NCBI GenBank assembly: GCA_049320885.1
Contig: JBMORA010000027.1
Coordinates: forward strand, 32,001-96,000
Source: Thermodesulfobacteriota bacterium
Lineage (GTDB): Bacteria; Desulfobacterota; Desulfobacteria; Desulfobacterales; SURF-7
Length of the DNA: 64,000 nt
Direction of reading: 5' to 3'
Part shown: positions 13,249 to 33,418 of the stretch, one piece after another
Position numbering within the stretch: position 1 is the first letter of the stretch
How the letters are laid out: the number at the start of each line of letters is the position of its first letter
Notes under the pieces: generated by a model
The model's database searches: none
Told to the model about the DNA's origin: nothing
Seen by the model: only the letters and a program-made list of their open reading frames with translations
Position numbers and translations under genes: made by a program

Positions 13249-13325
13249 GCGCCCGTAGCTCAGCTGGATAGAGCACCGGACTTCGAATCCGTAGGCCGGG
13301 GGTTCGAATCCCTCCGGGCGCGCCA
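13249..13325 (+). tRNA. tRNA-Arg (UCG); integration target
   Basis: Acceptor stem GCGCCCG/CGGGCGC, anticodon loop CTTCGAA, GGTTCGAATCC, encoded CCA. Confidence 0.95.
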
Positions 13326-13329
13326 TTTA
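13281..13329 (+). repeat. attL core (49 bp)
   Basis: cttcgaatccgtaggccgggggttcgaatccctccgggcgcgccattta, identical to 25550-25598; begins at the anticodon loop. Confidence 0.95.
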
Positions 13330-13339
13330 TTTCAATGGG

Positions 13340-14467
13340 TTACAGGGTTGTTGGGCAGACCCCATTTTGCTGGTGTGGGACTTGGTGTGGGACTTTTTTG
13401 GAAACGTCCCCTGAAAAGTGCCTGTCGAAGACACTCATGGCATCCCTTTCCGCATTCCCGATTGAATGAAGATAGATTTCCGTTGTTGTCCTGTTTTCAT
13501 GTCCGAGAATCCGTTGAATGGACCCGATGGGGATGTTTTCCTGATCGAGCATCGATGCGCCGAAATGCCGCAGGGCATGAAAGCGGAAATACCGGACTCC
13601 CGCCTTGTCGCACAGATACCGCATGATCTGGCTTCGATCCTTGTAACGCTTATCGATCCAACTTCGGCTTTTTCTGTCAAAATACCGGTGCCAGAACACC
13701 CAGGGTTTCATTCCATCCCGATTTTCGTAGCGCCGCCGCATGATGTCATACAGGCTGCCGCACATCGGAATCTTGCGGGGCGTTAAATGGCCGCCGCGCT
13801 TTTTGCGGGTGTACAGGATAACCGACCTGGTTTCAAGGTTCACATCCTGCCACGTCAGGCGGTTTATTTCGCTCATTCTGCCCATGGTAAGGGCAATGGT
13901 CCAAAGGTAATCCTGCGTGTCCGTATCGGCCGCTGAAATCACCTTGAGAACGTCTTCTTTCGGCGGTACGTATTTGATCTTCTTTTCCACCGGAAAAAAC
14001 GCAATGCCCCGTGTGGGATTCCGTTGCATCCATTCGCGGGTTGGATGCATGGCGAAATTGAAAAGCGCCCTGAGCATTCTAAGATCCTTGTTGGCGGTAT
14101 AGCCCGATGTCTTGCGAAAACGCTTGAGCAGGAACTCTTGTATCGATGCCGGCGTGATGTCCCCGCACTTACATTTTCCCCATTGCTTGATCCACCGCTT
14201 GGCCAGATAGATATGGTCTGAATAATGCCGTTCCGAATTATACGCTTTCACATAATCCAGGCGGTGATTCACCAGATCCAAGAAGGCCATGTCGGTTGGG
14301 ATCGCCGGTTCCTCGGTCTGAATCTTCGGGTTTTGAATTTCCTCCCTTCTGGTTGCTTCGGCCTGTCTGGCTTCGCGTTTGTTTTTGAATCCGGCTTGCG
14401 TGTAGCGCATGCCGCTCAGGACAAAATCGTAACGCCACGACTTGCCCTTGACCGAAAATACACTCAT
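13340..14467 (-). CDS. Tyrosine recombinase/site-specific integrase
   Basis: TMGRMSE (R), FHALRH (HxxR), LGH...TTEIY (H, Y) catalytic motifs; AAGGAGG RBS. Confidence 0.95.
   Translation of the reverse strand: MSVFSVKGKSWRYDFVLSGMRYTQAGFKNKREARQAEATRREEIQNPKIQTEEPAIPTDMAFLDLVNHRLDYVKAYNSERHYSDHIYLAKRWIKQWGKCKCGDITPASIQEFLLKRFRKTSGYTANKDLRMLRALFNFAMHPTREWMQRNPTRGIAFFPVEKKIKYVPPKEDVLKVISAADTDTQDYLWTIALTMGRMSEINRLTWQDVNLETRSVILYTRKKRGGHLTPRKIPMCGSLYDIMRRRYENRDGMKPWVFWHRYFDRKSRSWIDKRYKDRSQIMRYLCDKAGVRYFRFHALRHFGASMLDQENIPIGSIQRILGHENRTTTEIYLHSIGNAERDAMSVFDRHFSGDVSKKVPHQVPHQQNGVCPTTL
13371..13392 (+). repeat. Putative integrase arm-type sites, left (TGGTGTGGGA x2)
   Basis: Two direct copies inside the integrase 3' end; the same motif recurs near attR. 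Confidence 0.7.
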
Positions 14468-14612
14468 AGAGATCCTCCTTATTCGGGAAGAACAGAGAAC
14501 CTCCGAGTTTCCTGCCGCCCAGCGCTTTCCAGTTTTTATAAACCCAACTGTTGCTTTTCCGGAGCAACCGGGCGACCTCCTCGATGGTCATTATGGCCGG
14601 ATCGTTTTTCAT
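14238..14612 (-). CDS. Excisionase-like HTH protein overlapping the integrase 5' end
   Basis: IMTIEEVARLLRKSNSWVYK resembles Xis/MerR-like winged HTH; directly upstream of int. Confidence 0.65.
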   Translation of the reverse strand: MKNDPAIMTIEEVARLLRKSNSWVYKNWKALGGRKLGGSLFFPNKEDLYECIFGQGQVVALRFCPERHALHASRIQKQTRSQTGRSNQKGGNSKPEDSDRGTGDPNRHGLLGSGESPPGLCESV

Positions 14613-14782
14613 GTCAATATTTTCGTTCGCCACAATCAAGGTCCATGAGGTCTCGGAGGTTGTTTTTCTTCGTAAATAGGCGGTCTCGCGTCTTCGGTTC
14701 AAAGTAGCATCACCCGCCAACCTGTTCAAGGCCAAGCGTTGTGGCCTTTTTCCGTTCAATTGGGGTATTGCCGCCGCCTGGT

Positions 14783-16282
14783 CTATTCGGGAGGCCCGCC
14801 CTGATCTTGACCATCACCGGCCAGCCTTGAGCAGGTTGGCGGCTGATGCTGGAGGGGACACAGGCGACGGCGAGAGGACTGGCGGCCGGTCAGCTCTGGC
14901 TCAAGGACTTTCACCGGCTTGGCCGGCCGCAGATACGGGAAACCGTTTTCCTGCCTTTCAGCCCGAACTCTGTCGGCTTTGGCTTCGTCGCGCCGGTATC
15001 TGGCTTCTTTTTTCCGGATATCGTCCTTGATGACATTACGATCAATTTTCAACTGTCTCATTTCTTCCATGAGTGGTTTGATGATATCGCCTACATGGGT
15101 TAATTGTGCGTCGCTGTTGCCGGACACGGCATGAATGGAAGTGAGGATGCCGTATGCCTGGAAAGCCAATTTGCTTCTATCCTGTTGCATCGCTTTTGCC
15201 CGGATAATCGGCTTCGGTTTTTGGCTCCCGTTAAACCCTTCTGTAATCTTGATCCACCAATCGAGATCCTTTCTTTGGGTGTGATGCTTTCCCGGGTTGT
15301 CCTGGAATCGCAACCATTTTTGGGTGCAATATCCCCAGATATTTTTCGTATGGTTGAATAAATCTTCAATTGTGTGGATGTTCAATTCATTCATTGCCTG
15401 ACGTCTAAGCTGGAATTCGGTTCGGATGATCTTCTTTCCGGAAGGAACTCTTTTTATACCCCAGATTGAATACATCCATTCTTTGGATTTCTTGATTTTG
15501 ATTTCAAGGGGCTTGTCATACAGCCTGGCGCATAAATGGCCTTTCCCGATGCTGATCCCGGTTAAATCGGCATTATGCAAATGTGACGCGGCGTATTTGG
15601 AGCGCGTTACCCGGTTATGAATTATGTCCATCGTCCATTTGTCGGCGTCCATCAATAAATCCAGACATACATCGACTCTGCTCGGTTTTATTTCCGTGAT
15701 GAAACCGCCACGATATTCTATGAATTCGATTATCCGATTGACGGATTCTTCGGGGCCGTGATTCCATAGGGGTTCCGAGCGGATTTCCACCATGATGCTC
15801 GGTCTTGATTTCGGATGAGTCCAGTTTCCTATTTTCAAGTTGTATTCTTTATTCTGGATCATCCATTCATACCCCTTTGACCCATGGGCCATGATTTCAA
15901 ATATCCATTTTTCATCTGTTTTTTCTCTATCAAAATGAATAGCCTGTGGTTCGTCGTGGAATGCCGACAGCTTTTTCCCTTCCTCCAGTTTTTCGAAAAA
16001 GCGTTGATTTTGCCATATGGTGTTGATGGCAAGATAGAGAGTGTCAATTCCTGATGAGAGGACAGGACCGAGTCGAACCGGAGAGGGAGTCACCTTTACG
16101 GGGGGGCTGATAGTCGTTCGCCCCCCACCGGGGATTGAAACAGGTTCCGGGGGCGGGGGCTGTCCGGCTTCCTCGCTGGAGCGCTCGTCAGCGGCCCAGC
16201 CGGTTGAATGCAGGGGTTGATTTTCTGGGGTGATACTGGTTTTTGACTGTTGGGGTCCGTTTGTGAAGTTTGTTGTTTTCAT
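14783..16282 (-). CDS. Rep_trans-like rolling-circle replication initiator/relaxase
   Basis: GIDTLY, SRVDVCLD, TGISIG...RLYDK, RTEFQLRR motifs typical of the Rep_trans (replication initiation factor) family; start uncertain. Confidence 0.75.
   Translation of the reverse strand: MKTTNFTNGPQQSKTSITPENQPLHSTGWAADERSSEEAGQPPPPEPVSIPGGGRTTISPPVKVTPSPVRLGPVLSSGIDTLYLAINTIWQNQRFFEKLEEGKKLSAFHDEPQAIHFDREKTDEKWIFEIMAHGSKGYEWMIQNKEYNLKIGNWTHPKSRPSIMVEIRSEPLWNHGPEESVNRIIEFIEYRGGFITEIKPSRVDVCLDLLMDADKWTMDIIHNRVTRSKYAASHLHNADLTGISIGKGHLCARLYDKPLEIKIKKSKEWMYSIWGIKRVPSGKKIIRTEFQLRRQAMNELNIHTIEDLFNHTKNIWGYCTQKWLRFQDNPGKHHTQRKDLDWWIKITEGFNGSQKPKPIIRAKAMQQDRSKLAFQAYGILTSIHAVSGNSDAQLTHVGDIIKPLMEEMRQLKIDRNVIKDDIRKKEARYRRDEAKADRVRAERQENGFPYLRPAKPVKVLEPELTGRQSSRRRLCPLQHQPPTCSRLAGDGQDQGGPPE
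16101..16126 (-). other. Candidate double-strand origin/nick-site hairpin
   Basis: GGGGGGC-GAACGACTATCA-GCCCCCC on the coding strand at the 5' end of rep. Confidence 0.45.
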
Positions 16283-16331: not shown

Positions 16332-17291
16332 TTATTTTTTGTCCGATTGAAATGAATTCAACCAGATTTTTCTTTCACGTTGAATTGCCTTTGCAAAGGC
16401 TTCGGGGCTTTCTGGTAAATCTGGATCAATCTCCGGACCGCCTGAATCCATTTGAACAGCATCGAACAATTGACGAATTTCGGGTTCTGTCAGTTTCGCA
16501 TTAAACAATTGACTTGCTGCAGAAACCAAGCCGGCCACGTAACATTTTACGCTTTTTGGGGTTATGGTTTTTATGGGTGCTTTACTAAGTGCGGATGTTA
16601 TGACGCTATAGGTTCGATTGTTTTTTCTCCATCTTGATTTATGGAATATGTCGGCGATTCTTGGTTCATGAATTAATGAAGAATCGATTCGTAATAGTTT
16701 ATCAAGTGCATCTATGTTTCCACTTCTTGCCTTTCGCAAGAGGATTCCAGGTGGTTTTTGATGAAAAAACCAGCATGGTACCACAACTCTGTAAAAAAAT
16801 ATTATTTCGGGATCTTTTATTTCTCCTTCAATTTTTGGTTGTATTTCTTCATTATTTTTACTTGGAAAATCTTCTTCTATGTCTTTATAACTTATTTGTA
16901 AAAAATCCTTACAACAATTTGAATTCTCTTTTTTTTCTTCAAGAATCAATTTATCTATTTCGTTTTTTAGCATTTCATTTAATGTTTTTGATCCTGTTCT
17001 TCTCATTTTTTTTCGGAATAAATTAAATATTTTAATGAATATTATACTAATTTCAGCGAATTCATATTTTGCGGCAAAGAAATTTTCTAAAGTATTTATT
17101 ACTGTTCGATTTTTTTTGTATAGAGAAATCCATAATTTTTTGTCTGGTGGGGTTTCATTTGGAGTAAGTTTTTCACCAGATTTCCATATTTTTAATATTG
17201 AATAGATAGCACTTGAGCTTACAACTGCTTGTGTAGCTACGATTGCAATAAATACTGGTTTGTTTTCACACCATTTTTTAATATTATTCAT
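16332..17291 (-). CDS. Hypothetical protein, probable element backbone gene
   Basis: 319-aa AT-rich ORF directly upstream of rep; not followed by an attC. Confidence 0.7.
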   Translation of the reverse strand: MNNIKKWCENKPVFIAIVATQAVVSSSAIYSILKIWKSGEKLTPNETPPDKKLWISLYKKNRTVINTLENFFAAKYEFAEISIIFIKIFNLFRKKMRRTGSKTLNEMLKNEIDKLILEEKKENSNCCKDFLQISYKDIEEDFPSKNNEEIQPKIEGEIKDPEIIFFYRVVVPCWFFHQKPPGILLRKARSGNIDALDKLLRIDSSLIHEPRIADIFHKSRWRKNNRTYSVITSALSKAPIKTITPKSVKCYVAGLVSAASQLFNAKLTEPEIRQLFDAVQMDSGGPEIDPDLPESPEAFAKAIQRERKIWLNSFQSDKK

Positions 17292-17300
17292 AAATAGAAT

Positions 17301-17354
17301 CGCCGCTAATCAGCCGCGCGGAATTTTGCGTCGGCTGAATTAGCATTGTTAGCC
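17301..17354 (-). other. attC site of the R-M cassette (R' is non-canonical G|AT)
   Basis: Minus strand GGCTAAC-AAT-GCTAATTCAGCCG...CGGCTGATTAGC-GGC-G|ATTCTA; one extrahelical base in the L box. Confidence 0.8.
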
Positions 17355-17360
17355 ATTGCC

Positions 17361-18971
17361 TTATTTTTTTGATCTATTCAATCTTCTATTAGATAATTTC
17401 TTCCAAATACTATCCGCAAGCTCTATTTCCTTGTCGGTAAAGCCGTATCCTTTTTTTAGAATTTGCTCATTCGTAATATTCAAAATTTCGTCTATTGGCT
17501 TTTTGGCGCGCATCATCCTATCTATCTGATTAAGCAATGCTTCATTTCCTATTTTATATGGAAGCAGAATTTTCCCAGCTTCACTAGGCATTAATTCCAA
17601 TACTCCACCACCATAAGAGCGTCCGGTAATTTCGGAGAATGCCAATGAAAGTGAATTGTAAAAACTCGCTACAAAGGCTTTGATGTTGGTTTTTGGCTTT
17701 ACAAATACTCGATGCATGGTGTCGGTGGTGTAAGCACCTACTTCGTTCAAAATTAATTTTGGGTAAAGATTATTTCTCCTGATAAAAAGTGCTTGTGATA
17801 ATTTGATGGAAGGCACAACAAACCAGTCATCCCGAATGCCTGTTTTGTAGCCCTTGTTGATTCCCACAGACTCGCCCAACGAGATATAGGTAGTTGCTCC
17901 TTTATGCCTATTTAATTCTTTCTTTGGAGGGAAAATGAGCAAATGCGTACGGGCTCTGGTCAAGCGGTTTCTTTTCCAATCTTCTTCGTTGAAAACAATG
18001 CTATTTACCTGCACACTTCGGCCCACCATAGGTTTGGCATATTCATGCAGGCTGTATGCTTCCACTACAGGTAAAGGCACGGTGAAATAGTTGTTTGCAC
18101 CCGTGGTAATACCTACTTCAACTTTTGCATAGTCTGCAATTTTTGGAATAAATTTTTTCTGGGCGACTGTTTCCAAAAAGTTAATTTCTTCCTGTTGCAA
18201 AAAATAAAATGTCCACTTGTTGCTTTTAAAATCTATCTGCTTTTGTGGACTTTGAAGCTTGTTTACTTCCAGTGCTTCCAGTTCGGATGCATCAGTTATT
18301 TCTAAATGCTCAATAAAGTGGCTGTCCGTTCCATTTTTCTCACAAAGCAGTAATACAACCTCTTGCTGTATATCAGGGAATACCAGCTTTTTAAATGAGA
18401 CGATATTGATCTTGTTGTAAAAATGAGCCAAAAACTCCCGTAGTTGTTGAGCATAAGAAACCTGTAATATTTCCGCTGGAACAACAAAGCCGATTTTCCC
18501 CTTCTCCTTTAATAGTAAGCTTGAACCGACTACAAAGGAAACCCATGCATTGGTGAGCTTAGTGTATTTAAGACCTGCTTTGTTAAATATTTTAGTTGCT
18601 TCTATCTGCTGCGCCTCATCAAAATATTGATAACGTATGTAAGGTGGATTACCGACCACAAAATCAAAACATTCAGTAGTTTCATTGCAATAGAGATGAA
18701 AGTCTGTGTTAATAACCGTTTTGCTTCCAAGTTGTAGTTTATCGGCTTTTTTAGCTTCTGCTTCATCAAATTCAATAGCCGTGATCTTATTAAATTTATG
18801 CTTCTGCTCCTTTAACTGTTTCAGAAAAACACCTTCACCGCAGCTCGGTTCCAAAATATCGTAGGATGAACTACCGTTAATGCCCCATTTCAAAATAAAT
18901 GCGGCAATAGGTTCGGGGGTATAAAATCCACCTCTAAGTTTCTCTGCTGATGCGTGTTTAATTAGCTTCAT
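17361..18971 (-). CDS. Companion N6-adenine DNA methyltransferase (M.Eco57I/M.AcuI-like)
   Basis: GGFYTP, LEPSCGEG (motif I), VGNPPY (motif IV), YGGGVLELMPSE; overlaps the R-M gene stop. Confidence 0.9.
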   Translation of the reverse strand: MKLIKHASAEKLRGGFYTPEPIAAFILKWGINGSSSYDILEPSCGEGVFLKQLKEQKHKFNKITAIEFDEAEAKKADKLQLGSKTVINTDFHLYCNETTECFDFVVGNPPYIRYQYFDEAQQIEATKIFNKAGLKYTKLTNAWVSFVVGSSLLLKEKGKIGFVVPAEILQVSYAQQLREFLAHFYNKINIVSFKKLVFPDIQQEVVLLLCEKNGTDSHFIEHLEITDASELEALEVNKLQSPQKQIDFKSNKWTFYFLQQEEINFLETVAQKKFIPKIADYAKVEVGITTGANNYFTVPLPVVEAYSLHEYAKPMVGRSVQVNSIVFNEEDWKRNRLTRARTHLLIFPPKKELNRHKGATTYISLGESVGINKGYKTGIRDDWFVVPSIKLSQALFIRRNNLYPKLILNEVGAYTTDTMHRVFVKPKTNIKAFVASFYNSLSLAFSEITGRSYGGGVLELMPSEAGKILLPYKIGNEALLNQIDRMMRAKKPIDEILNITNEQILKKGYGFTDKEIELADSIWKKLSNRRLNRSKK

Positions 18972-21951
18972 ACATTTTTTTTATTAGAGGGATTAATGAA
19001 TCATCTTTTTTCAATCCATAAAGCTTTTTCAAAAGCTCATCCAGTTCCGATTTAAGCAAGTGAAACTCTCTTTGTAACCTTGAAAGTGACCGCTTGTCTT
19101 TTTGATTTTTGTCTATTTCTCCCTGTTTCAGAATCAGTTCCTTTTGGGTTTTTACGATCTTAGTGTGAAATGTCTTATCCATTTTATTATTGAAGTCAAT
19201 CTTTCGAATTGGTAAACGCTTCAAAACTTTTGTTCCTCTAGCAATATAGCCACCTCTAAAAACTTCGCCCAAAAGAGCCGAAATCCATTCCAAGTATTTT
19301 GAGTTAAGCAAAGCCTGAATGTAATAGATTGAGTAAGGAGAATCGGGGGGGAGTGCAACAACACAATAGCCGGCTGTTCCTCCGGAGGAAATCAGTGTGC
19401 CATGAAAATCAATGGCGTATTTGTCGCCAACTGACAGAACTCCCACAATGATTTTTTTCGGTATCCCGCATTTGTCTAAACTTTGGTGTCTGCCATATCT
19501 GTGCCATTCATGTTTAGTTTCAGGTTCAGGTTTGATGTCTCTTTCTTGGTTGTCAAGTATGCTTTTATGTTGTTGCAAGTATTTATAAGCCGCAGGAAAA
19601 TTCTTCTTAATATCCTTTAACGAGATTAAATCTATACCTGATTTGGTAAGTTTGTAAGGGTAAATTACCCGTGCATTGGGTTTAAAAGGTCGATAAGTAT
19701 TCAGGTTGTCATCGCCAGAAGAAGTTTGGAAGTAAGGTTTCGTTATGGCCTTTTCAATTTTCCATTCCATTCCCTTTTTTTCAAAATAGTAATAGGTTTT
19801 ATCTTCCTTCTTAGGCTGAAAGATATAGATTGCATTGGCACTTGTTTGAATACCGTTAAAAATACCTTCACGGTCTACGATATCTTCCAGCAAAATACTT
19901 TGAGCATTAATTTTATCAAAGGCCGGTTTGAGTTCGGGAGGTACGAGCACCCAAACTTCTTTATTCAGGCTCTTTGTTTCTATAGTTTGGTACTCAATGT
20001 CATCTTTTTCACTAACCCTCCAGGCCGGTAAATCCATGATTTCGGTGTGTTGGAATGTTGAAAGTTTTTCTTTTCGGAGAATCAGCAGACACGTGTATGT
20101 GGTTTTACTGCTGAATATCTGGTTTGCGCCAAAAGAAACAATGGTATGAATATACTCTTTATCTTGCAAAAACTCTCTGAGTTTTAAACCGGCTCCTACT
20201 TTAGCGAATTTGCTTGGTACGATATATCCAAGCCAGCCTTTGTCTTTAAGTAAATCAATTGCCCGTTCAATAAAAACAAAGTATTTGTCGAATTGCTTGT
20301 AAGCAGAGGAGTATTTCTTTTTGTATATCGGAAGTTCAAGCGGAGTGATCTGCTTCATGTCTTCCGATTTCATATACGGAGGGTTGCCAACAATTACGTC
20401 ATATTTTTCCTTGCTAAAATCAAATGGATTTATTTTTGATAAAGCTTTTTTATCATTAACATCTTGTGGAGCAATCAATGTATTCCCAAAATGGATATTG
20501 CTGCTTAGATCAGGCAGAATTGGATTTTTTGAGTTGACTGAACTGTTGTCCTCACTTTCAAGAAGTTTTAGGAGCAACCCGAATTTTGTAGCTTCAACCG
20601 CATTATAATCTTTATCTGTGCCATAAATGCAATTCAAAAGCAGTTCCCGTTTTAGTTCAAATGGTAGCTTATAGGTATTTATGCTGGTATGAATAAGCTT
20701 TGAGCTGGCATTGTTGAGATAGAAGTCAAGCAATGTGTCGCTCAATAACTGGAACAGCTCTAAAAGAAAAGCACCTGAACCGCAGGCAATATCCGCCATT
20801 TTTGAACCAAGGATATCTTTAGCTGTTTTACCCTCACAAAACGGAGCAACTGTCTGATTTAAAATAGACTTGATAATAAAATTCGGAGTAGTGATAATAT
20901 CCCTGTCAACATTTTCCGGTTTTCGGACAAGTTCAATCTTTCCGTTTTGTATAGCGAGTTTTTCAGAAAGAAAAATTTCGTAGATGCTGCCCAATACATC
21001 AGATGAAAATACTGCAAAAGAGTAGGGGCTCTCCGGGTAGTAAAGTTGTCTGATGATCAACCAGAATATGGAGCTGATGTTGCCAATGATTTTTTCAGAT
21101 AAAAATTGATCAAACAAACCGGAATTGTATTTTTTATCTGCTTGATCGAACTTTTTCAGAAGGGCTTTGAAGTCCTGCTGATCGGCAAATTGGAGTAAGG
21201 TTTGATAGGCCTCTAAATCTCTATCTTCGCAGACCCGAAGAAAAATAATCCGGTTTATGTAGCTCTGTACGTAATCGTTGAGCAATTGCTCTGATATCCC
21301 GTGTTCATATTTGTAGATTTCTGCTCCAAGCTGTTTCCTCCATTCATTAATCTGATTCAGGAATAGATGGTCAATGCTGAATAGACTGAGCTTTTCTTCA
21401 ATGCTCTTCCATTCTTCATCAAACTGACCGGTGTAAACGGATTTTTTTCCAAGCAGGGATTGCAGTTCTTCAAACTTGTCTGCATATTCAGTGTAGTGGT
21501 ATTTTTTTATAAGGGCTTTGTTATGGTTGTCGTCTTTTTCAACTTTGATTGAACAATCATAGATCAACAGATATTCAAAATTGGAAAGCACCGATATTTT
21601 CAGCTTAGCGGTAAATCCATATCGCCTTACTTGTTTGGCGTTATCAATATTGGTTTCAATGGAAACGCTTGGCTTTTTAGCTTCAAGAAAAAATTTCCGT
21701 TCAGAGAACAGTCTGAAAGTATAATCTGGCTTTTTTGAGTTTTCAAATGCATTTGCCTTTAACGCTTCTTCTAAAAGGACTTCCCTTTCGTTAGTTGGCT
21801 TACCTGATTTGTTTTTGATATCCCATCCTAAAAACTCAAACAATGTATCCAGAAAATCAGACCTCAATTGCGTCTCATTATAAGTCGCTTTGAGATAATT
21901 ATCTCTGTTGGAATGATATTTATTTACAAGGTTTTGAATGGTTGTTTTCAT
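18958..21951 (-). CDS. Type IIG restriction-modification enzyme (Eco57I/AcuI-like), 997 aa
   Basis: N-terminal nuclease KPDY...LEAK (PD-(D/E)xK), DIACGSGAFL, VGNPPY, C-terminal TRD; family recognised from memory of Eco57I/AcuI. Confidence 0.9.
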   Translation of the reverse strand: MKTTIQNLVNKYHSNRDNYLKATYNETQLRSDFLDTLFEFLGWDIKNKSGKPTNEREVLLEEALKANAFENSKKPDYTFRLFSERKFFLEAKKPSVSIETNIDNAKQVRRYGFTAKLKISVLSNFEYLLIYDCSIKVEKDDNHNKALIKKYHYTEYADKFEELQSLLGKKSVYTGQFDEEWKSIEEKLSLFSIDHLFLNQINEWRKQLGAEIYKYEHGISEQLLNDYVQSYINRIIFLRVCEDRDLEAYQTLLQFADQQDFKALLKKFDQADKKYNSGLFDQFLSEKIIGNISSIFWLIIRQLYYPESPYSFAVFSSDVLGSIYEIFLSEKLAIQNGKIELVRKPENVDRDIITTPNFIIKSILNQTVAPFCEGKTAKDILGSKMADIACGSGAFLLELFQLLSDTLLDFYLNNASSKLIHTSINTYKLPFELKRELLLNCIYGTDKDYNAVEATKFGLLLKLLESEDNSSVNSKNPILPDLSSNIHFGNTLIAPQDVNDKKALSKINPFDFSKEKYDVIVGNPPYMKSEDMKQITPLELPIYKKKYSSAYKQFDKYFVFIERAIDLLKDKGWLGYIVPSKFAKVGAGLKLREFLQDKEYIHTIVSFGANQIFSSKTTYTCLLILRKEKLSTFQHTEIMDLPAWRVSEKDDIEYQTIETKSLNKEVWVLVPPELKPAFDKINAQSILLEDIVDREGIFNGIQTSANAIYIFQPKKEDKTYYYFEKKGMEWKIEKAITKPYFQTSSGDDNLNTYRPFKPNARVIYPYKLTKSGIDLISLKDIKKNFPAAYKYLQQHKSILDNQERDIKPEPETKHEWHRYGRHQSLDKCGIPKKIIVGVLSVGDKYAIDFHGTLISSGGTAGYCVVALPPDSPYSIYYIQALLNSKYLEWISALLGEVFRGGYIARGTKVLKRLPIRKIDFNNKMDKTFHTKIVKTQKELILKQGEIDKNQKDKRSLSRLQREFHLLKSELDELLKKLYGLKKDDSLIPLIKKMYEAN

Positions 21952-21973
21952 AAAACATTCTCATTTTTTGTAT

Positions 21974-22045
21974 GGCTAACGCCTTTCTCACCTGACGGTG
22001 TGGAGCGGCAGCGTAACACCGGTCAGGTGCAGAAAGTGGTTAAGC
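21974..22045 (-). other. attC site (72 bp)
   Basis: R'' GCTTAAC contains the upstream gene's TAA; arms cacctgac/gtcaggtg and ggtgt/acacc with bulges; R' GTTAGCC. Confidence 0.88.
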
Positions 22046-22777
22046 GCCCATTTTTCTAAGATATTCGATAAAGCCTTTTTCGAACATCGTCTGAACGTCA
22101 TTTATTTGCAATTTTATAGAAACAAATACGTCCTTGTTCTTGATTTGACAGTACCCCAACATATTAACGCTTTGGTCGGTTATCTGTGGCAACCGGCCTT
22201 GGTGGACAAAAGCGTTCCTTTCCTTGTAGAGCATGTCCACGAAGGCTTTCAATCTTTCATCAAAGTTGAGCGATTTGTATTTAGGGCTTTGGTCTTTAAT
22301 ATCAAAACCCGCGATTAATTTTTGTTTGTCTTCGAGAGTAAAATATCTATTAACAAAACTGCGCACTTTCTCTGTAGAGCCATGTTTTGCATAATATTCA
22401 TTCTGAAGAGATACGATTGTTCTTTTAAGATCTTGTTGATCAGTTATTGGAAATGAAATCGATTCAGGTTCTTTAATTTTGGCTAATAACCATTGGTCAA
22501 AGGGCTGAAATTTCTCATCCGCTGTAGCTTCCATTATTGAAAATATTGAAATCAAAATAACACCAGCATGTTTGATCTCTTTCGTTACGACATAATAAAA
22601 AAAGCCTAATCTTATTATTTCTTCTTTTTCGTCGTTTAATTTTGACAAGCGTTCATTAAAATCATTACGATTTTCAAAATATTTTTCAAATGCGCAATAA
22701 AAAAGATCACTATTTATCCTATACATATCGTTAATGAAGGTATCGGGAAAAGGCTTTATTTGATCTTTATCGTTCAT
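22040..22777 (-). CDS. HEPN-motif protein (cassette; candidate anti-phage RNase)
   Basis: SIFSIMEA followed by LYKERNAFVH (Rx4H); ATG at 22777 lies inside the cassette boundary. Confidence 0.6.
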   Translation of the reverse strand: MNDKDQIKPFPDTFINDMYRINSDLFYCAFEKYFENRNDFNERLSKLNDEKEEIIRLGFFYYVVTKEIKHAGVILISIFSIMEATADEKFQPFDQWLLAKIKEPESISFPITDQQDLKRTIVSLQNEYYAKHGSTEKVRSFVNRYFTLEDKQKLIAGFDIKDQSPKYKSLNFDERLKAFVDMLYKERNAFVHQGRLPQITDQSVNMLGYCQIKNKDVFVSIKLQINDVQTMFEKGFIEYLRKMGA

Positions 22778-22789
22778 AGATGATATGGC

Positions 22790-22921
22790 GCTTAACACTA
22801 GAGCTGTGGGGCCGGGAAACGCACCTGCACAGCATTGAAAAAAGTTACAAATATTTTGCCTGCAAAGGATTTGGAAAAAAGCCGCGACCTTTCCCGGTCC
22901 CTCACAAGCGAATGGTTAGCA
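22790..22921 (-). other. attC site (132 bp)
   Basis: Plus strand gcttaac...gctgtggggccgggaaa...tttcccggtccctcacaagc...gttagca. Confidence 0.85.
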
Positions 22922-22944
22922 TCTCTGGACTTCTGCGCTATTGA

Positions 22945-23157
22945 TTAACTGTTTATCGAACGAAACCATTTTGGCACTTTCCCTTGAATAGTCACATATG
23001 AAAATAATAGCAAAAGCAATGATCCAGAAATTAGAAAACTCCAAGATTTCGTTTCAGCGACAAAAATTTCAATTGCTAATGCAAATAAAAATAATACACT
23101 GGAAATTCCAGCGAGTATTCTATAAACAGTTTTGATTTTTGGATCTACTTCTTTCAT
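22945..23157 (-). CDS. Small two-TM membrane protein (cassette), 70 aa
   Basis: Two hydrophobic segments; fills the space between two attC sites. Confidence 0.7.
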   Translation of the reverse strand: MKEVDPKIKTVYRILAGISSVLFLFALAIEIFVAETKSWSFLISGSLLLLLFSYVTIQGKVPKWFRSINS

Positions 23158-23167
23158 AATTTTTGGA

Positions 23168-23293
23168 TGCTAACACACTGCTGTGGGGCAGCCAGGGCTC
23201 CCACAAATTTTATAAAAAACGATAAAAGTTCAATTTTCAACAATATTTCAAATCGGCTCGGCCCTGGCTGTCCCTACCAGCAGATTGTTCGGC
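23168..23293 (-). other. attC site (126 bp)
   Basis: Plus strand tgctaac-aca-ctgctgtggggcagccagggc...gccctggctgtccctaccagcag-att-gttcggc. Confidence 0.87.
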
Positions 23294-23305
23294 CCTTTAC
23301 CATTA

Positions 23306-23767
23306 TTAAGGTGAATATTCATGTATAATGTCCGATGCTGTGATTATCCAATCAGGACCATCGGCCCATTCTATTGTATGAATAATTAGGCCATCATCTG
23401 AAAGTGAAAATTCATCATATCTCCAGTCTCCGTGTGTTCGAGTTATGTTTGTTCCAGGCATATTAAGTTGATATTTTTCCACTATGGGATAACGAAGGGT
23501 GATTCGTCCTGAATATGCAGACTCGAGCTCTACTGTGATTCTGCAATACTGATTATTTTTTTCTATTGTATCCGACATTGTAAAGTTTATAAGCCGACTG
23601 TCATGTGGAGCTTCAGGTTTATCAAATGAATACCACCACTCCGAAGTTGCAATTTTAAATGCATTTTTTGGAAAACGATCCCGAACAGAATTGAGATAGC
23701 CCATGTATTGTACCCAATTCTGGTCTGAATTATCAGAGTGCCTCTGTTTTGAAAGAATAAATGCCAT
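23306..23767 (-). CDS. Hypothetical cassette protein, 153 aa
   Basis: Fills the cassette; conserved-looking PHDS, HGDWRYDE and HTIEW motifs; function unknown. Confidence 0.75.
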   Translation of the reverse strand: MAFILSKQRHSDNSDQNWVQYMGYLNSVRDRFPKNAFKIATSEWWYSFDKPEAPHDSRLINFTMSDTIEKNNQYCRITVELESAYSGRITLRYPIVEKYQLNMPGTNITRTHGDWRYDEFSLSDDGLIIHTIEWADGPDWIITASDIIHEYSP

Positions 23768-23788
23768 TATAAATTTCCAATATTATGA

Positions 23789-23887
23789 GGCGAACGTTTA
23801 AATGAGCTAACACAAAAGCCGCCAAAATATTTGATTTTATCAAGAATCGACCCGGCTTTTGTGGTTAGCTCTATTTTTTTGTTCGGT
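23789..23887 (-). other. attC site (99 bp)
   Basis: Plus strand ggcgaac...aaatgagctaacacaaaagcc...ggcttttgtggttagctctattt...gttcggt. Confidence 0.85.
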
Positions 23888-23995
23888 TACTTTTAATATA
23901 CAGATATATAAACCTCTATCAAAATATAACCAAGAGTACATGACAATTTTGGTTCAACCAGCACTCAGGGAATAAAAAACTGTAGAAATTGTAAA

Positions 23996-24922
23996 TTATA
24001 TCCCCGATAATTTTTTATTTGTTGAATTTATTCGATTATATTTTTTAATTTCACCATTTATAGTTTGGATAATGAAAAAGTCATTTGTTATATCGATGAT
24101 AATATCCTTATCCGTATCGCCTTTTGAGGCACTATTGCTTGATGATTTTTCATATACATAATAAAGAGTTGAATCTTTGATTTTCCATGTACCTGAGAAA
24201 TCAATTGCTATTGTTTTTTTTTGCTTTAAATGACCATCATACTTGCCATTAGTATAAAAGTTTAATTGTATGGTCTTTTCCTTCTCGCTATTTACATGTT
24301 TCCAGGAGCCAATCAAACTTGAAGCAAGATTTGGATAATTGCGAGCCTCGGCACCACGCAAACGTTTTTGTTTAGATATCAAAACTTCTTTAAGTCGCTC
24401 TATTTGGATACTAAAAAAATCACAATTATTATTTATGGTTGGCTTTAACTCAATTGCTTTGTCAAAATCTTTAATGGCATTTTCGTGTTTACCAATATTA
24501 TAATAGGCAATACTTCTATTATAGTAAACGAGTGCATCATTTGGTTTCAAAGTTAAAGCCTTATTGTAATCTTGGATGGCCAATTCTTTTTTACCAATCC
24601 AATCATAAGCATTCCCTCGATTAACATAATATTCAGCTTTGTTAGGAACTAACTTAATTGATTTAGTAAAATCATTAATGGCTTTATCATATTGTTTTAA
24701 TTCAAGGTAACAATTCCCCCTTCTGTTGTAAGCAATAGGATTATAGGGATTTTTTGCTATTTCTTTTGAAAAGCTATCTATTGCTTGCTCATAATTGCCA
24801 GAATCATATTGCCTTATTCCTTCCTTAATAAACTGAAGATCATATGCAAATGTATTTGTTATACTCAAATACATTGAAATTATAAATAAAAAGGGGAAAG
24901 AAACTATCTTAATTAATTTCAT
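23996..24922 (-). CDS. Exported TPR-repeat protein (first cassette)
   Basis: Signal peptide; about four TPRs (AYNRRG, YYVNRG, VYYNRS); C-terminal 'LIGSWK' beta domain. Confidence 0.85.
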   Translation of the reverse strand: MKLIKIVSFPFLFIISMYLSITNTFAYDLQFIKEGIRQYDSGNYEQAIDSFSKEIAKNPYNPIAYNRRGNCYLELKQYDKAINDFTKSIKLVPNKAEYYVNRGNAYDWIGKKELAIQDYNKALTLKPNDALVYYNRSIAYYNIGKHENAIKDFDKAIELKPTINNNCDFFSIQIERLKEVLISKQKRLRGAEARNYPNLASSLIGSWKHVNSEKEKTIQLNFYTNGKYDGHLKQKKTIAIDFSGTWKIKDSTLYYVYEKSSSNSASKGDTDKDIIIDITNDFFIIQTINGEIKKYNRINSTNKKLSGI

Positions 24923-25408
24923 CTTTTATATCCAATTGAACAATTCGCATAGGTCGAACAAATTGACCGAACCACATTGGTTAACAGGTCAATTTTCCCT
25001 GATAAGTTGATATTGAGGGGGTTTTCGGGCAAATTTACCCTGAAATGAAATCAGGGTTGATTTAAGCCGAAAGTTATGTTCCCATCCGTCCTTATTTGAG
25101 ATCAACCTCAACAAGCTCTTCCCGATCCATAGAAACTTGGTTCGCCTACTGAACGATACATCCGAAAAGAACCAAACAAAGCGATACTGTAAATATTTAA
25201 AGAAGTTAAAACCCTATTTAACTGGATATGTCAACAATAAAAAACCATGAACTTTCATTTCGGGATTCAATACGCGACCAGTATTGCTCAATATCCCAGG
25301 GAAATGCCTATTGTAACTGAACTATACAGTTCACGCGTTTTCTCATGAATCGAATGACCGCCAATCGAATGCGGAATATTTTTTAATCCGGGGTGATCCT
25401 CAAGAATT

Positions 25409-25549: not shown

Positions 25550-25598
25550 CTTCGAATCCGTAGGCCGGGGGTTCGAATCCCTCCGGGCGCGCCATTTA
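25550..25598 (+). repeat. attR core (49-bp duplicate of the tRNA-Arg 3' half)
   Basis: Identical to 13281-13329; lacks the tRNA 5' half. Confidence 0.95.
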
Positions 25599-25658
25599 AA
25601 TCAAGTACTTAGCGCGAATTTTACCAATTTTTCAGCCCGAAAAATCGGCGATTGTGCC

Positions 25659-25768: not shown

Positions 25769-27577
25769 TCAAGGCGCCATTGTTTCGGGCGTCACCTCCC
25801 AACCCGCCTCGATGCCGCCTGGCAGCATCTGGCCTCGATCTTCACCAACCTCGGCATCGATCAGGCCATTGAGCTTTTCGTTCATAGCGACGACCAGTTC
25901 GCGGTGCTGCTTGCCGGACGCAGCGAGATTCTTCATTTCCAAAGGATCGGCTTGGACGTCGAAAAGCTCGACATCATTGAGCCGATAGAGTTCTTCCAGT
26001 GTTTTTGGACGGTTATGCTGCTTGGGAGAAAAATAGCGGGCGAACACGTACTGGCCGTCGTACACCATCCTCACCGCGCCACGTTTCGTCATGTCAGGGA
26101 CAATGCCTGCTTGCTTGAGCTGTCTCGGATTCCCGCCCTGCTTGATGTGAGCAACGGCCTTGTATAGAAAATCCCCGTCGAGATATGCGAACATGTTGTA
26201 GTTGAACAGGGCACCATCCCTTACGGCGGTGAGATCGGCGCTCTGCGGGGCGGCCAGGACGCCAGAGAAGTCTTTGCCAGGCACACCCTTGACAATGTTG
26301 GCACGCTGGCCCGGTGCAACGCCCGTCAGCGCAACCAGCGTCGGGGCAAGGTCGACATGGGAGGTGACAGCACGACATTGTTTGCCTCCGGGATAAGCGG
26401 GATGTACCACAATCAAGGGCACGTGATTCTGTTCGCGATACGACACCGCCCCCTTGGCATGCAGCAGGTGTGCGCCGTCCATGTCTCCATGGTCCGACGT
26501 CAGGATTACAATAGTGCGGTCGGTGAGGCCTGCCGCATCGAGTTCGGCAAGAACCGCGGCGATATTACGATCAACGTCGCGCAGACAATTCAGATAGTAG
26601 TTGTGTCGCCGACGCCAGCGTGGCTCCTCATTAGGAATTTCCCCCACGAGGGCATCGTGTGAACGCAGGAAGTCGCGATGCGCTGGTGGCCGGCCCGGTG
26701 CGTCGAGCGGTTGGGTGTGATTTGCCGGCAGGTCGAAGCGCCATTGCTTGGCATAAAGCGGATCGCTCGGTTCCCGTACCACATGGGTGAGGGCCTTCGG
26801 AGCTTGGTGCGCCGTGCCAGGCGCATCCGTGTCATAGAACATTACATCATGCGGATTCACCAGATTGACGGCGAGGAACCACGGTTTGTTCTGGGAAGCC
26901 AGTTCGCGCCCCTTGCCGCGCAACCAGCTGACGGACATGGCGGCAATCACGCCGTCATGCAGATAGCCCCCCTGATGATGCGCGATGATATCGCCCACCC
27001 CGAAGTAATCGGAGAAACCGTAGTCCTCCATTTCCTGGGTAAAAATCTTGGTGGGCGTACCCAGGGTGTTGACCGTCTCGAAGTCCTTGTTCAGGTGCCA
27101 CTTGCCCTTGTATGCCGTGTAGTAGCCGGCTGCGCGCAACATGTCCCCCACAGTGGGAAGTTCGGTCGACATGCTGCTGATCCAGGGGAAATTGGTGTTA
27201 TCAAACATTCGGGTGTTTTGAATGTGTTGGCCGGTATAAAGGACAGACCTCGATGGTGTGCACACGCAGGAATTGATCCGATGATTTAGAAACGTTGTAC
27301 CCTGCTTGATCAAGCGCTCACGGGCAGGCAGCCTAAAACCAGCTGGCAATTCACCCGGGCGAAAGAAACGCTCCTGATCGGTAAGAAGGAAGAGAATGTT
27401 GTAAGGGCCAGCGGCAAGCCTTTCGTTGCGTGAGGGGTGTTCATTACCAGCCGCGGCGAATGCCTTTTCGGATCCACTGCCAAAGGCGCCCAAACCGGCA
27501 ACCATCGCACCGGCTCCGGCAAGACACATAAATTCACGCCGCGAAATGGAGGAGCTATAATCATCGTGATCTCTCAT
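25769..27577 (-). CDS. Tat-exported sulfatase
   Basis: SRREF twin-arginine signal, CTPSR formylglycine motif, GKWHL, SDHG; AAGGAG RBS before ATG 27577. Confidence 0.9.
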   Translation of the reverse strand: MRDHDDYSSSISRREFMCLAGAGAMVAGLGAFGSGSEKAFAAAGNEHPSRNERLAAGPYNILFLLTDQERFFRPGELPAGFRLPARERLIKQGTTFLNHRINSCVCTPSRSVLYTGQHIQNTRMFDNTNFPWISSMSTELPTVGDMLRAAGYYTAYKGKWHLNKDFETVNTLGTPTKIFTQEMEDYGFSDYFGVGDIIAHHQGGYLHDGVIAAMSVSWLRGKGRELASQNKPWFLAVNLVNPHDVMFYDTDAPGTAHQAPKALTHVVREPSDPLYAKQWRFDLPANHTQPLDAPGRPPAHRDFLRSHDALVGEIPNEEPRWRRRHNYYLNCLRDVDRNIAAVLAELDAAGLTDRTIVILTSDHGDMDGAHLLHAKGAVSYREQNHVPLIVVHPAYPGGKQCRAVTSHVDLAPTLVALTGVAPGQRANIVKGVPGKDFSGVLAAPQSADLTAVRDGALFNYNMFAYLDGDFLYKAVAHIKQGGNPRQLKQAGIVPDMTKRGAVRMVYDGQYVFARYFSPKQHNRPKTLEELYRLNDVELFDVQADPLEMKNLAASGKQHRELVVAMNEKLNGLIDAEVGEDRGQMLPGGIEAGWEVTPETMAP

Positions 27578-27774
27578 ATTATCTCCTTGTGATTTATTGC
27601 TCTTATATAGATAAAGCCACCGCATAATCGCGGGCGGATGCCCGCGTCCGTGTGCATGCCGTGTGCCGGGCACGGCACGTGTTCTTAAAAGTGAGCCAAC
27701 GCTATCATATCTTTGATAATTTTGGCAAGTCCTAGAACCAGCCTGATGGAGGCGAAGGGTGTGGCGGCAAGCAA

Positions 27775-27849
27775 CGATTGTTTGCGTGGGTCCAAAACGT
27801 CAGGCGTTTGGTTGTTCGTTATGAGTACCATGCTGATCATTTTCTCGAA
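27775..27849 (+). pseudogene. IS5-family transposase C-terminal fragment
   Basis: Translates to [25 protein letters not shown], matching the IS5 'ERxFAWL..FRRL..RYE' motif. Confidence 0.65.
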
Positions 27850-28245
27850 CCACTTCGACGTATGTTTCGGCGTCATCGGTGGATAAACCGCTTTTCCCGC
27901 CGCAGGCCCAAAATCCCGGCTCCTGGTTTTTCATCCGTGTAATCCGTGATCAAACAGCTCTTCCCCCGCTCTTTCCCTAAAACGCCCCTTTTGCCCCCCA
28001 AAGGAGAATCTCAGCGCAGAATTGTTTGCATGGATTCTATCTGCCATTTCGTATTTTTGCAAACCGCATAATCACGCCGCCGGAGGTAAAACGTGCAAAG
28101 GCGTTTATTTCAATATTATTATATGTTATCGTATTTAACCAGAATCTTGGGGCAATCAGGGCTTATGCCCGAATAGAATTCCTGTGAATTGGATTGCCGT
28201 AGCATTACGGTAACGAGCAACCTGAACCATTGGAGGATGCATAGT

Positions 28246-29376
28246 ATGTCTTGGGGCTGGAGAAAACAAAGGACCCTGGTCGACAAAACACCCCCCAAAC
28301 CTCCTTTTTATCTGGCAAGCGAAGATCTTTTTGTAAAAAAGGACGGCAAGGAAATTTTTGTAAAACATATTCATTCTGTTTCCAGGAAGATTTCGAATAG
28401 GGGGCCGGTTATCATGAGCCCGGGAGTGTGCAGCAACGCCAATCTTTTTCGAATGGACGAATCCGGTGGTTGCCTGTCATTGGATCATGACAGGTCCTTT
28501 GCCAATCTCCTCGCGTCGGAAGGTTTTCACGTTTACCTCTATCACCCCGGTTTTACAGAAAGGGTCCATAATCGTTATGTCAGCCGTCATTGCAATGAAA
28601 GTATCCATTACCGGAAACGATACAAGGTTTCTGCGGAATTCGGTTATCGAGATATGGTTGATTTTGAAGTGCCGGCGGTTATTGATTTCGTATGCCGGCA
28701 CAGCGGGAAGCGGAATGTAGACTGGATCGGGTATAGCCTTGGCGGGATGATTGCGTATTCATTTCTGTCCAAAAACCGAACAAATCCGATCCGAAACCTG
28801 ATCACCATTGGTGCCCCCATGACTTTGAATCAATTGTTTTTTCGATTTGTGCCGTTTATCAACTTCGCATCGACATCACTCGGATTGGAGGAAGATGCCT
28901 TGTTGGGAAATATCGCACACAATTTGGTCCCGCTTACCCGGGGGATTCGTGCATTGCCGAACTGGATCGTTCGTTTTAATCTCGTGACGCCGTTGTTATG
29001 CAATCCATTGAACATAACCAATACGGCGATAAAAACGATATTGGGGCAGATTATTGAACCGATGCCCAAAGAGCTGGAGCGGTTTTTTTCCAGATTTGTT
29101 CAACAGGGCTATTCTTCACGCGAAAAATTTGTCGTCTATCTGAAAAATTTGCGACAGCTCAAAAAAACCCGTAGGCGGTTTTTATTTTTTTATGGCGCCA
29201 ATGACATGATCGCAACGGCGGAGAGTGTCTTTCTGGCGCGTGAGACCATTTCCCCTGGCGATCCGGATAATCTCATCGGGGTGCCCGCTGCCGGACATAT
29301 CGATCTGGTTTTGGGAAAGAACGCCTTTGAAAAAGTCTGGAAACCCTCGCTTGAGTGGTTGAAAAAGAACGGGTAG
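28246..29376 (+). CDS. Alpha/beta-fold hydrolase (PhaC/lipase-like)
   Basis: WIGYSLGG nucleophile elbow, GAND, GHIDLVLG; start uncertain. Confidence 0.8.
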   Translation: MSWGWRKQRTLVDKTPPKPPFYLASEDLFVKKDGKEIFVKHIHSVSRKISNRGPVIMSPGVCSNANLFRMDESGGCLSLDHDRSFANLLASEGFHVYLYHPGFTERVHNRYVSRHCNESIHYRKRYKVSAEFGYRDMVDFEVPAVIDFVCRHSGKRNVDWIGYSLGGMIAYSFLSKNRTNPIRNLITIGAPMTLNQLFFRFVPFINFASTSLGLEEDALLGNIAHNLVPLTRGIRALPNWIVRFNLVTPLLCNPLNITNTAIKTILGQIIEPMPKELERFFSRFVQQGYSSREKFVVYLKNLRQLKKTRRRFLFFYGANDMIATAESVFLARETISPGDPDNLIGVPAAGHIDLVLGKNAFEKVWKPSLEWLKKNG

Positions 29377-29394
29377 TTATTCCGAAATGGATCC

Positions 29395-30328
29395 GGGTCG
29401 CACCAAGTTAACAGGCAGGTATTTCAGGATTAATGTTCCAGCAATATGTATTTTGGGGGCCAATATCGCTGTTTTCGACCCCAAAAAAGCAATTATAGAA
29501 AACCTCGTCTTCACGTAACTCGGAACAATTTTCAGCTTGCCGGATGGAACGTCCGATTGCCATGGAATTCATTTTTTTCTTTATCAACTCCATAAAAGAT
29601 CGGCTGCCAACGGCGATTGATTGCGTCCACATCGATTCCCTCTGCAGGTCTGAATTGGATACCGCTGCGTTCACCCATTTGCGATGTGCGATTTGAAAAT
29701 TCGAAAAATCCGTAAATCCGGCCAATCTCCGAACCTCTTCATAATCAATCAGAACACATTTTTTCCGGGGCGCCTGAATCTCATTATAGCCGCCGTGCAT
29801 CCATCGTTCCGGATGATCCACGACCCCGGCGCGCACCATATTCATGTCAATGTATACGATACACCGCAATAAATGTTCACCGTCTTCGATGATCGCGGCA
29901 TGATAGCGATCTTCCCAAAATGCTCCTTTCCGTTTCTTTCTCTGATTATATTCCTGCCCGGTTCTCCCGGCCACCAGCTGCATGGATCTGGAAAGAACAT
30001 CGTTACCGGTGGCGTCGTAGGCGAGTAAATGGATATGATTCGATGTCACCGTATAATCCAGAATTTTCAGTCCGTATCGTTTTCTCGCTTCATAGAGCCA
30101 TTGAAGCCATCGGAGCCGGTCCTTTGAGAATTTCAACAAGAATTCCCGTTTATGGCATCTATGGGTGATATGCCAGATATGTCCGGGAATGTAATGTCGA
30201 TAAGCACGCGCCACAAAAACTCCTCAATATCGATCTTTTTGGGAGTAAAAAATGCATTATCGCTATGAAATCAAGGCCCTCATAATCCAATTAAAATTTT
30301 AAATCAAGATGTTAACTTGGTGCGACCC
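29395..30328. mobile_element. 934-bp element: Y1 (RAYT-like) transposase between perfect 19-bp inverted repeats
   Basis: gggtcgcaccaagttaaca (29395-29413) and tgttaacttggtgcgaccc (30310-30328). Confidence 0.8.
29408..30214 (-). CDS. REP-associated/IS200-like HUH tyrosine transposase
   Basis: WHITHRC, TSNHIHLL (HUH), GAFWEDRY, YIDMNMVRAG. Confidence 0.88.
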   Translation of the reverse strand: MARAYRHYIPGHIWHITHRCHKREFLLKFSKDRLRWLQWLYEARKRYGLKILDYTVTSNHIHLLAYDATGNDVLSRSMQLVAGRTGQEYNQRKKRKGAFWEDRYHAAIIEDGEHLLRCIVYIDMNMVRAGVVDHPERWMHGGYNEIQAPRKKCVLIDYEEVRRLAGFTDFSNFQIAHRKWVNAAVSNSDLQRESMWTQSIAVGSRSFMELIKKKMNSMAIGRSIRQAENCSELREDEVFYNCFFGVENSDIGPQNTYCWNINPEIPAC

Positions 30329-30495
30329 CGGCGTTCGGCGCCTCGGCGCCTCAATAGCGTACATTACAGACGAATGTCTTGTACCGAGACCGCCGCGTGC
30401 GGCACTGCGCAGCAGGTTTAAAAATCAGACAGTCGCTTACCGCAAGGATGGCCCCGCCCGGCGTGATTACAATTGAATCCAAAATCCAATCAATC

Positions 30496-30530
30496 AAACA
30501 GCCGGGGGAATCTCTCCCCGGCTGTTTTTA
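30496..30530. terminator. Intrinsic terminator downstream of fic, possibly bidirectional
   Basis: aaacagccgggg-N8-ccccggctgttt, flanked by A and T tracts. Confidence 0.6.
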
Positions 30531-30581
30531 ATTTTGTTACCTTGTAACACGATAATCCTATGGCTGCGAAAGAACCGGCGT

Positions 30582-33358: not shown

Positions 33359-33362
33359 AAAA

Positions 33363-33418
33363 GAATCATATAGAATGCAAAAAAATATATCAATATAAAA
33401 AAGCATTATATATAATGC
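33363..33418 (-). promoter_or_regulatory. hipBA promoter with two palindromic operators
   Basis: TTGATA (33393-33388)-N17-TATGAT (33370-33365); perfect palindrome gcattatatataatgc at 33403-33418 and a 13/16 copy at 33363-33378. Confidence 0.7.

Follow-up and report, generated by a model that had tools for sequence, protein, structure and literature searches.

The stretch of DNA analysed here (the window; 64,000 nt, positions 32,001-96,000 of contig JBMORA010000027.1 in assembly GCA_049320885.1; coordinates are window positions unless a locus or contig is named) contains a 12,324 bp element at a tRNA-Arg gene. Both ends of the element are marked by a 55-bp repeat of the tRNA-Arg(TCG) 3′ end, with 53/55 positions identical, and it carries an integrase gene, a rolling-circle initiator gene and five gene cassettes with their attC recombination sites, headed by an attI site and the decayed 5′ end of a gene for an integron integrase (intI). 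Since this remnant accompanies an attI directly upstream of cassette 1, we read the locus, on a modest balance of probability, as a captured integron that lost its intI and whose attI was kept loaded in trans by an IntI encoded elsewhere.

The cassette array, attI and the intI remnant

25228..25346, plus strand: decayed intI 5′ remnant of about 40 codons, interrupted by a stop, a pair of frameshifts and a 6-nt gap, and oriented divergently from attI
24966..25063, minus strand: attI, crossover G at 24972, directly upstream of cassette 1
23996..24922, minus strand: cassette 1 open reading frame (ORF), TPR-repeat protein (Pfam TPR_1, E 5e-32)
23789..23887, minus strand: attC1 (fold and model R3)
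23306..23767, minus strand: cassette 2 ORF, no Pfam, NCBIfam, PADLOC or PHROG match
23168..23293, minus strand: attC2 (fold and R3)
22945..23157, minus strand: cassette 3 ORF, small membrane-type protein (sub-threshold DUF6320)
22790..22921, minus strand: attC3, the weakest site (z -2.5, E 0.22; fold and R3)
22040..22777, minus strand: cassette 4 ORF, no Pfam, NCBIfam, PADLOC or PHROG match
21974..22045, minus strand: attC4 (model R2, fold and R3)
18958..21951, minus strand: cassette 5, Eco57I-like Type IIG restriction-methyltransferase (PADLOC REase_MTase_IIG, 1183 bits)
17361..18971, minus strand: cassette 5, companion type II methyltransferase (PADLOC MTase_II, 666 bits; Pfam Eco57I)
17294..17354, minus strand: attC5, terminal, R′ = G|ATT (R2, fold and R3)

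The five attC palindromes all lie on the minus strand where the first-pass annotation of this DNA had placed them, apart from one end: attC5 was located correctly, but it ends at 17294 and not at 17301, and its R′ reads G|ATT instead of G|TT. A pattern heuristic gave 0-6 false hits per 7.8 kb at threshold 12 (a looser version, with 331 hits genome-wide, was dropped), and we therefore relied on home-made covariance models built from other loci only, R2 from 11 short and R3 from 14 longer sites. With R3, the five co-oriented sites were the five best distinct sites in the 64-kb window, with exact ends (E values of 9e-6, 2e-5, 0.005, 0.09 and 0.22), while R2 recovered the two short sites (28 and 21 bits) and missed the three long ones. 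Folded as bottom strands, they form attC-like hairpins that have extrahelical bases (z values against shuffles of -6.65, -4.97, -2.51, -4.84 and -3.33). The start of each cassette is complementary to its own R″ box, as had been noticed at first pass, in 7, 6, 7, 7 and 7 of 7 positions (34/35 bases), and the observed pairing, matching at 19/20 variable positions, was the best among all 120 permutations. The GC content of the array is 30-39%, compared with about 56% for the host genome. By its sequence, with at least two attC on one strand and no intact intI nearby, the array is a cluster of attC sites that lacks an integron integrase (CALIN). The earlier suggestion that the attC sites came from different donors looks weak, since three attC of the host chromosome itself are 83-88% identical to attC4; attC5 is 90% identical to an attC in an inovirus-like prophage (L034) and ends 10 bases before the start of orf4, a gene of the element's backbone.

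Judged from its protein matches, cassette 5 is a defence cassette, a predicted Type IIG restriction-modification pair of a fused restriction enzyme-methyltransferase and a companion methyltransferase, which bears out the defence cargo first proposed; defence cassettes in integrons have been published (bioRxiv 10.1101/2024.07.02.601686). The best 80 of its 121 relatives span several phyla. A few share its cassette core, followed by other attC sites (L260, L261, L264 and L304), and most are not cassettes (5/68 by the heuristic, some of them false; 3 model hits).

The attI is 84% identical (75/89) to the attI beside an intI on contig C56 of the host genome and matches a profile of 18 relatives' attI with E 2e-13; a search of the genome contigs with an exact attI pattern gave no match. 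Its L box is followed by a 7-nt spacer, the mode in relatives being 5 and the range among 28 parsed sites 4-10. The motif occurs in 14/61 genomes searched and adjoins a full intI at 7 sites, which identifies it as the attI of the host family. The intI remnant lies at the usual distance and in the usual orientation from attI. It was detected at the DNA level by nhmmer (17.7 bits, E 3e-7, 0/500 shuffles as good) and is marginal at the protein level (8/1000 shuffles as good), while the 269-nt block from the intI start codon through attI is 69% identical to an integron of the same genus (L064; E 1e-41). The window thus lacks an intact intI over its 64 kb, as had been stated, but the statement that it holds no intI at all has to be amended, as the gene has lost about 85% of its length and survives as a decayed 5′ end next to attI. 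An IntI is available in trans, as the first-pass annotation supposed: the host genome has two full intI, on contigs C8 and C56 (the only full TIGR02249 hits), and the cognate IntI on C56 is intact at 326 aa.

The two parts of this platform have diverged to different degrees. Compared with five relatives, the attI is 80-90% identical, within the 77-91% seen among intact or recently broken pairs, whereas the intI 5′ end is 55-61% identical to the same relatives, which are 66-86% identical among themselves. An attI conserved as in intact integrons beside a diverged stub points to cassette entry after intI decay. The chance of 34/35 complementary core bases is 0.007 at 10% drift per site and 7e-6 at 20%, so that the near-perfect cassette cores make the cassettes look younger than the decay of the stub.

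The element backbone and its relatives

13249..13325, plus strand: tRNA-Arg(TCG), integration target (ARAGORN, Rfam)
13281..13335, plus strand: att core repeat, tRNA side, 55 bp (blastn)
13340..14467, minus strand: element tyrosine integrase, not IntI (PF00589, E 1e-20; phrog_1)
14238..14651, minus strand: excisionase-like helix-turn-helix (HTH) gene, 3′ half overlapping int, start codon assumed
14783..16282, minus strand: Rep_trans-family rolling-circle initiator (Rep), 499 aa, from its predicted fold
16101..16126, minus strand: candidate double-strand origin, a G/C hairpin with a conserved loop within the rep 5′ region
16332..17291, minus strand: orf4, conserved backbone ORF without assigned function, homologues directly upstream of rep in relatives
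25550..25604, plus strand: att core repeat, far side (blastn)

The proposal of a tRNA-integrated rolling-circle element with int, xis and rep held up. Its integrase scores 41 bits against TIGR02249 (cut-off 265). The HTH gene, kept next to int in relatives, gives an HTH_17 match from its N-terminal 60 aa (E 3e-4, under the Pfam cut-off). The AlphaFold model of the window Rep resembles 4CIJ (E 7e-9) and 4CWC, both Rep_trans initiators; the protein has no Pfam match of its own, PF02486 is matched by 7/29 aligned family members, and a search of solved structures by sequence with the Rep alignment returned 0 matches. Residues R202-D204-D208, Y255 and E289 are invariant. The model leaves residues 1-70 unstructured, mostly with a predicted local distance difference test score (pLDDT) below 50, and shows no N-terminal HTH fused to Rep_trans, the arrangement that defines MOBT (PMC11389934). 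In 88 distinct sequences from relatives, compensatory changes preserve the hairpin within rep; among 45 distinct 26-mers, one pair is G-C in 30 and T-A in 14, and another G-C in 32 and C-G in 12. From the position of origins in Rep_trans replicons, it is likely the nick origin. Since orf4 precedes rep in many relatives, we count it as backbone; it has no Pfam, PHROG or confident atlas family (atlas hits all < 0.9). The tyrosine integrase, the repeats at the tRNA 3′ end and the modelled Rep_trans fold are features that the element shares with integrative and mobilizable elements (IMEs). A Zot/pI morphogenesis ATPase and coat genes, the mark of an inovirus prophage, were absent among the element's proteins.

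Relatives of Rep were found in 6/401 genomes of the host order and, overall, at 50 genome loci, 4 viral loci and the 80 best among 94 metagenome loci, the named ones mostly Desulfobacterota, which makes a sulfate reducer of Desulfobacterales type the likely host; single-protein locus searches with Rep and with Int gave no close relatives. The 137 Rep loci form 121 clusters, many on short contigs, and include 36 distinct elements with both ends. At least two attC are present in 5/36 of these bounded elements, namely the window element, L020, L034 and L119 (four by script) and L017, added from other evidence. Complete integrons with their own IntI, all over the TIGR02249 cut-off, lie next to orf4 in L119, L171 and L030, whose Rep proteins group in a single supported clade of a quick tree; their IntI is 43-47% like the C56 type, and integrons were therefore captured at least twice. 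In L119 (7451-8893) and L171 (7517-8986), an IntI that is extended by about 150 aa at its N-terminus overlaps the orf4 start, and both have their own attI ending ...AACTT|GTT. An attI without intI was found in the window and in L020, the only matches to the attI profile among the Rep loci. Arrays with neither attI nor intI are present in L012, L017, L024 and the inovirus-like prophage L034. No protein is common to the eight arrays compared, in keeping with the variable cargo first predicted for such int/rep elements. Two near-identical inovirus-like prophages lie in one genome (L034:1057-16933 and L039:599-14521); in L034, an array of five attC lies between the integrase and the att site, and L039 has a two-gene cargo that is not a cassette.

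L020 resembles the window element in layout, with a tRNA-Arg target, an integrase 70% identical, an attI at the far end, six attC by reading (four model hits) and no intI; no intI stub was detectable there, and it shares no cassette protein with the window. Its attI is 89-92% identical to the chromosomal attI of genome G113, in which an identical copy of the element lies, compared with 83% to that of the window. A single capture behind both platforms had an approximately unbiased p-value (p-AU) of 0.21 in quick trees. The first cassette of L020 (2795-5173) is a 2.4-kb three-gene unit and a candidate anti-phage system, encoding a TIR-like protein (ThsB match), a caspase (EACC1-type, under the cut-off) and a second TIR-like protein, recognised by eye.

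To the right of the element (25769-33400) lie genes for a sulfatase, an alpha/beta hydrolase, an IS200-type transposase, a Fic protein and, with an HTH gene upstream of it, a HipA-type toxin, which suggests an older variable region at tRNA-Arg. Related int-HTH modules (62-65% alike) without the window-type Rep occur at tRNA-Arg sites of the host (C30:75913-77252, locus L098, and C61:13242-13423) and of two genomes of the same genus (L346, L348), so that the integration module is common to different islands.

Orphan attI platforms in the host family

We examined 37 distinct attI sites, a biased sample that includes 20 extra regions picked because no intI was visible. A full intI was present at 7, an internally deleted one at 2, a 5′ remnant at 18 (the window included) and none at 10. 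Sites with decayed or absent intI are common on the chromosomes of the host family, mostly at ordinary sites and followed by attC; these counts make orphan attI platforms a habit of the family, and one such platform is found on the element. Single genomes of the family have as many as 7-8 attI-like matches (L188-L206, genomes G001-G031), most without intI or with its first codons only. Six remnants break off only a few codons from the start of intI, where the cassette strand has a TTGACA overlapping the start codon, and two intI have clean internal deletions beside an intact attI (L064:905-1345, with aa 79-248 gone, and L203:9574-9803). The homology ends of 26 orphan platforms were also compared with GWT sites, at which IntI might excise whole platforms; 10/26 were GWT against a background of 30%, and the idea was dropped, this lack of enrichment giving no sign of IntI moving whole platforms.

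The start of the window's contig (G000:C27:143-206, L207) holds a third, weaker attI-like site without intI. This site and the attI on C56 (L010:19785-20000) both run into one 127-bp sequence that breaks the assembly; the same sequence follows attI in L070, with a second tyrosine recombinase gene after it, and is possibly a repeated element inserting at attI. Further attC and small CALIN-like clusters of the host sit away from both intI genes (C33:1023-5428, C43:88378-89233, C17, C9:68972, C58:6698 and C12:290).

Origin of the array and known systems

In the scenario that we favour, a small integrative rolling-circle element at tRNA-Arg would have captured a platform of the host-family integron (intI 5′ end, promoter region and attI), intI would then have decayed to a stub, and attI would have been kept and have gone on receiving cassettes from an IntI encoded elsewhere, most simply from the intact C56 gene. 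The element probably borrows the cassette enzyme of its host: the intact cognate intI, the conserved attI and the near-perfect cassette cores make loading of the window attI in trans likely, with the C56 IntI as the obvious catalyst, and mobilisation of CALINs in trans has been stated before (PMC11389934, PMC12444791). The layout found again in L020 with other cassettes, and the many orphan attI with attC behind them on host-family chromosomes, speak for the scenario as well. The cassettes would have arrived after the decay of intI. Int and the HTH protein would excise the element at tRNA-Arg, Rep would nick the hairpin and maintain or export a single-stranded circle, host IntI would insert cassettes at the element's attI, and a helper (a conjugative element or an inovirus) would move the element and carry its array to new hosts.

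Several observations weigh against this scenario. With its 7-nt spacer, the window attI may no longer recombine. Conservation of attI may serve an overlapping promoter rather than recombination; TTGACA is found on the cassette strand at 27/37 attI sites, mostly overlapping the intI start codon and without a canonical -10, and a sigma-70 promoter search of the attI region gave 1 site where 2.1 were expected, none above chance. The stub may have had a more distant intI as its source, and the argument from age would then lose force. Cassettes are missing from most relatives, including the tRNA-Arg sisters L117 and L174, and in the genome holding L020 the intI of the cognate type is truncated, while its two full IntI are only 52% like it. 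Sequencing reads showed no excised circle, no cassette circle and no second strain with a different array at the element; only the probable source run covers the element, and since other tRNAs and the related integrase on C30 account for the joints seen near the att sites, the reads give no evidence on excision. The host genome contains no Zot (PF05707) and no VirB4 helper. A search for phrog_197 across the element family was uninformative on an inovirus helper, as it found no match and its control was silent as well.

Some of these points would be expected if the element had instead picked up, in one step, an already assembled chromosomal orphan-attI array, and now carried it as a fixed CALIN whose dead attI serves as promoter only. 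The aberrant spacer fits this, as does the terminal attC, which meets the orf4 leader at G|AT, an attG-type junction consistent with a single insertion (attG insertion is described in bioRxiv 10.1101/2022.09.11.507474). So do the orphan arrays at ordinary chromosomal sites in relatives and the attI of L020, nearer to that of its holder genome than to that of the window, as capture from a resident chromosome predicts. However, young cassettes behind an old stub would still require loading in trans before the capture, and the platform ends are not enriched in GWT. We regard such a frozen relic as rather unlikely, while the most serious of the alternatives. It is improbable that cassettes and platforms simply fall into any dispensable island of integron-rich sulfate reducers, so that the link to this element family would be incidental: the few bounded elements with at least two attC and the several unrelated CALIN-like sites of the host agree with chance landing, but inside the elements 28 attC-like hits fall in 283 kb, compared with 1 in 399 kb of flanking DNA (several singles being false hairpins and the flanks mostly core genes), and three members whose arrays do not overlap have a related IntI fixed beside orf4. 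Least probable is the vehicle that the first-pass annotation envisaged, a purpose-built cassette carrier without an intI at any time in its past and relying on the IntI of its host; L020, with attI and no detectable stub, would suit it, but the window has a decayed intI at normal distance and orientation, within the 25.0-25.5 kb where, by that annotation's own statement, a degraded intI or attI would refute its reading in favour of an ordinary decayed integron, the sisters L117 and L174 lack attI and attC, and other members carry a full IntI.

If the captured-integron scenario is extended to the family, small Rep_trans integrative elements of sulfate reducers would be recurrent, independent integron carriers, in which capture is repeated, intI shed and attI selected; this is a tentative proposal that may well not hold. 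If true, such 'satellite integrons' would draw on the cassettes of a host, anti-phage genes among them, and transfer entire arrays from lineage to lineage, and the multi-copy orphan attI platforms of the host family would represent the same strategy on the chromosome, in a form that current CALIN definitions do not capture. The attI being lineage-specific and the stub consisting of the intI 5′ end, our data also suggest that many CALINs hide a working attI. The mobility of sedentary environmental integrons is mostly known from transposon-borne clinical classes; the element family offers a transposon-free route, on a single kind of element and in states that run from the complete integron to an array with attI only. 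Having two attI variants alongside a cognate IntI in a single genome, it also provides a concrete, testable case of CALIN loading in trans, often asserted and rarely shown.

The inovirus-like prophages L034 and L039 of Desulfobacterales share the Rep family (about 41%) and the origin-like hairpin with the window element, and L034 has five attC inside its att sites as well, but both encode a Zot-like morphogenesis protein and a secretin, which the window element does not. Class 2 integrons are carried on Tn7 and use IntI1 in trans. They likewise combine a mobile platform, an attI and a dead integrase gene (PMC8876359), although intI2 is dead by one stop codon, whereas in the window most of intI is gone and the rest decayed. 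CALINs and their origin by intI loss have been described (PMC4889954), and the window array resembles them in its five attC without an intact intI nearby and with an IntI elsewhere in the genome, as is true of half of the published ones; it differs in keeping attI and an intI 5′ stub, which a search with the IntI C-terminal domain would miss, and in lying wholly inside an integrative element. The CALIN of the Shewanella prophage M16-3 is also an attI-bearing, integrase-less array on a mobile element, but a complete integron lies on the same prophage (PMC9892861), while here the array rides on a 12-kb Rep_trans element that has no phage genes, with the IntI encoded on the chromosome. Rep_trans/MOBT IMEs share a tyrosine integrase, a tRNA 3′-end target, a size of 5-15 kb, a Rep_trans initiator and variable cargo, and IMEs of the SGI1 type can carry integrons (PMC5704250); in that review, however, the Rep_trans IMEs are from Firmicutes and the IME integrons are clinical resistance integrons of the In104 type, whereas the window element has an environmental, host-type integron with defence and other cassettes, no coupling protein and a putative mobilisation. 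No description of Rep_trans integrative elements with environmental integrons in sulfate reducers was found in the literature searched, which did not extend to supplementary tables that may list such loci. The individual parts are thus already known in print and the locus alone is a decayed integron; what appears to be new is the element family as a recurrent carrier of integrons.

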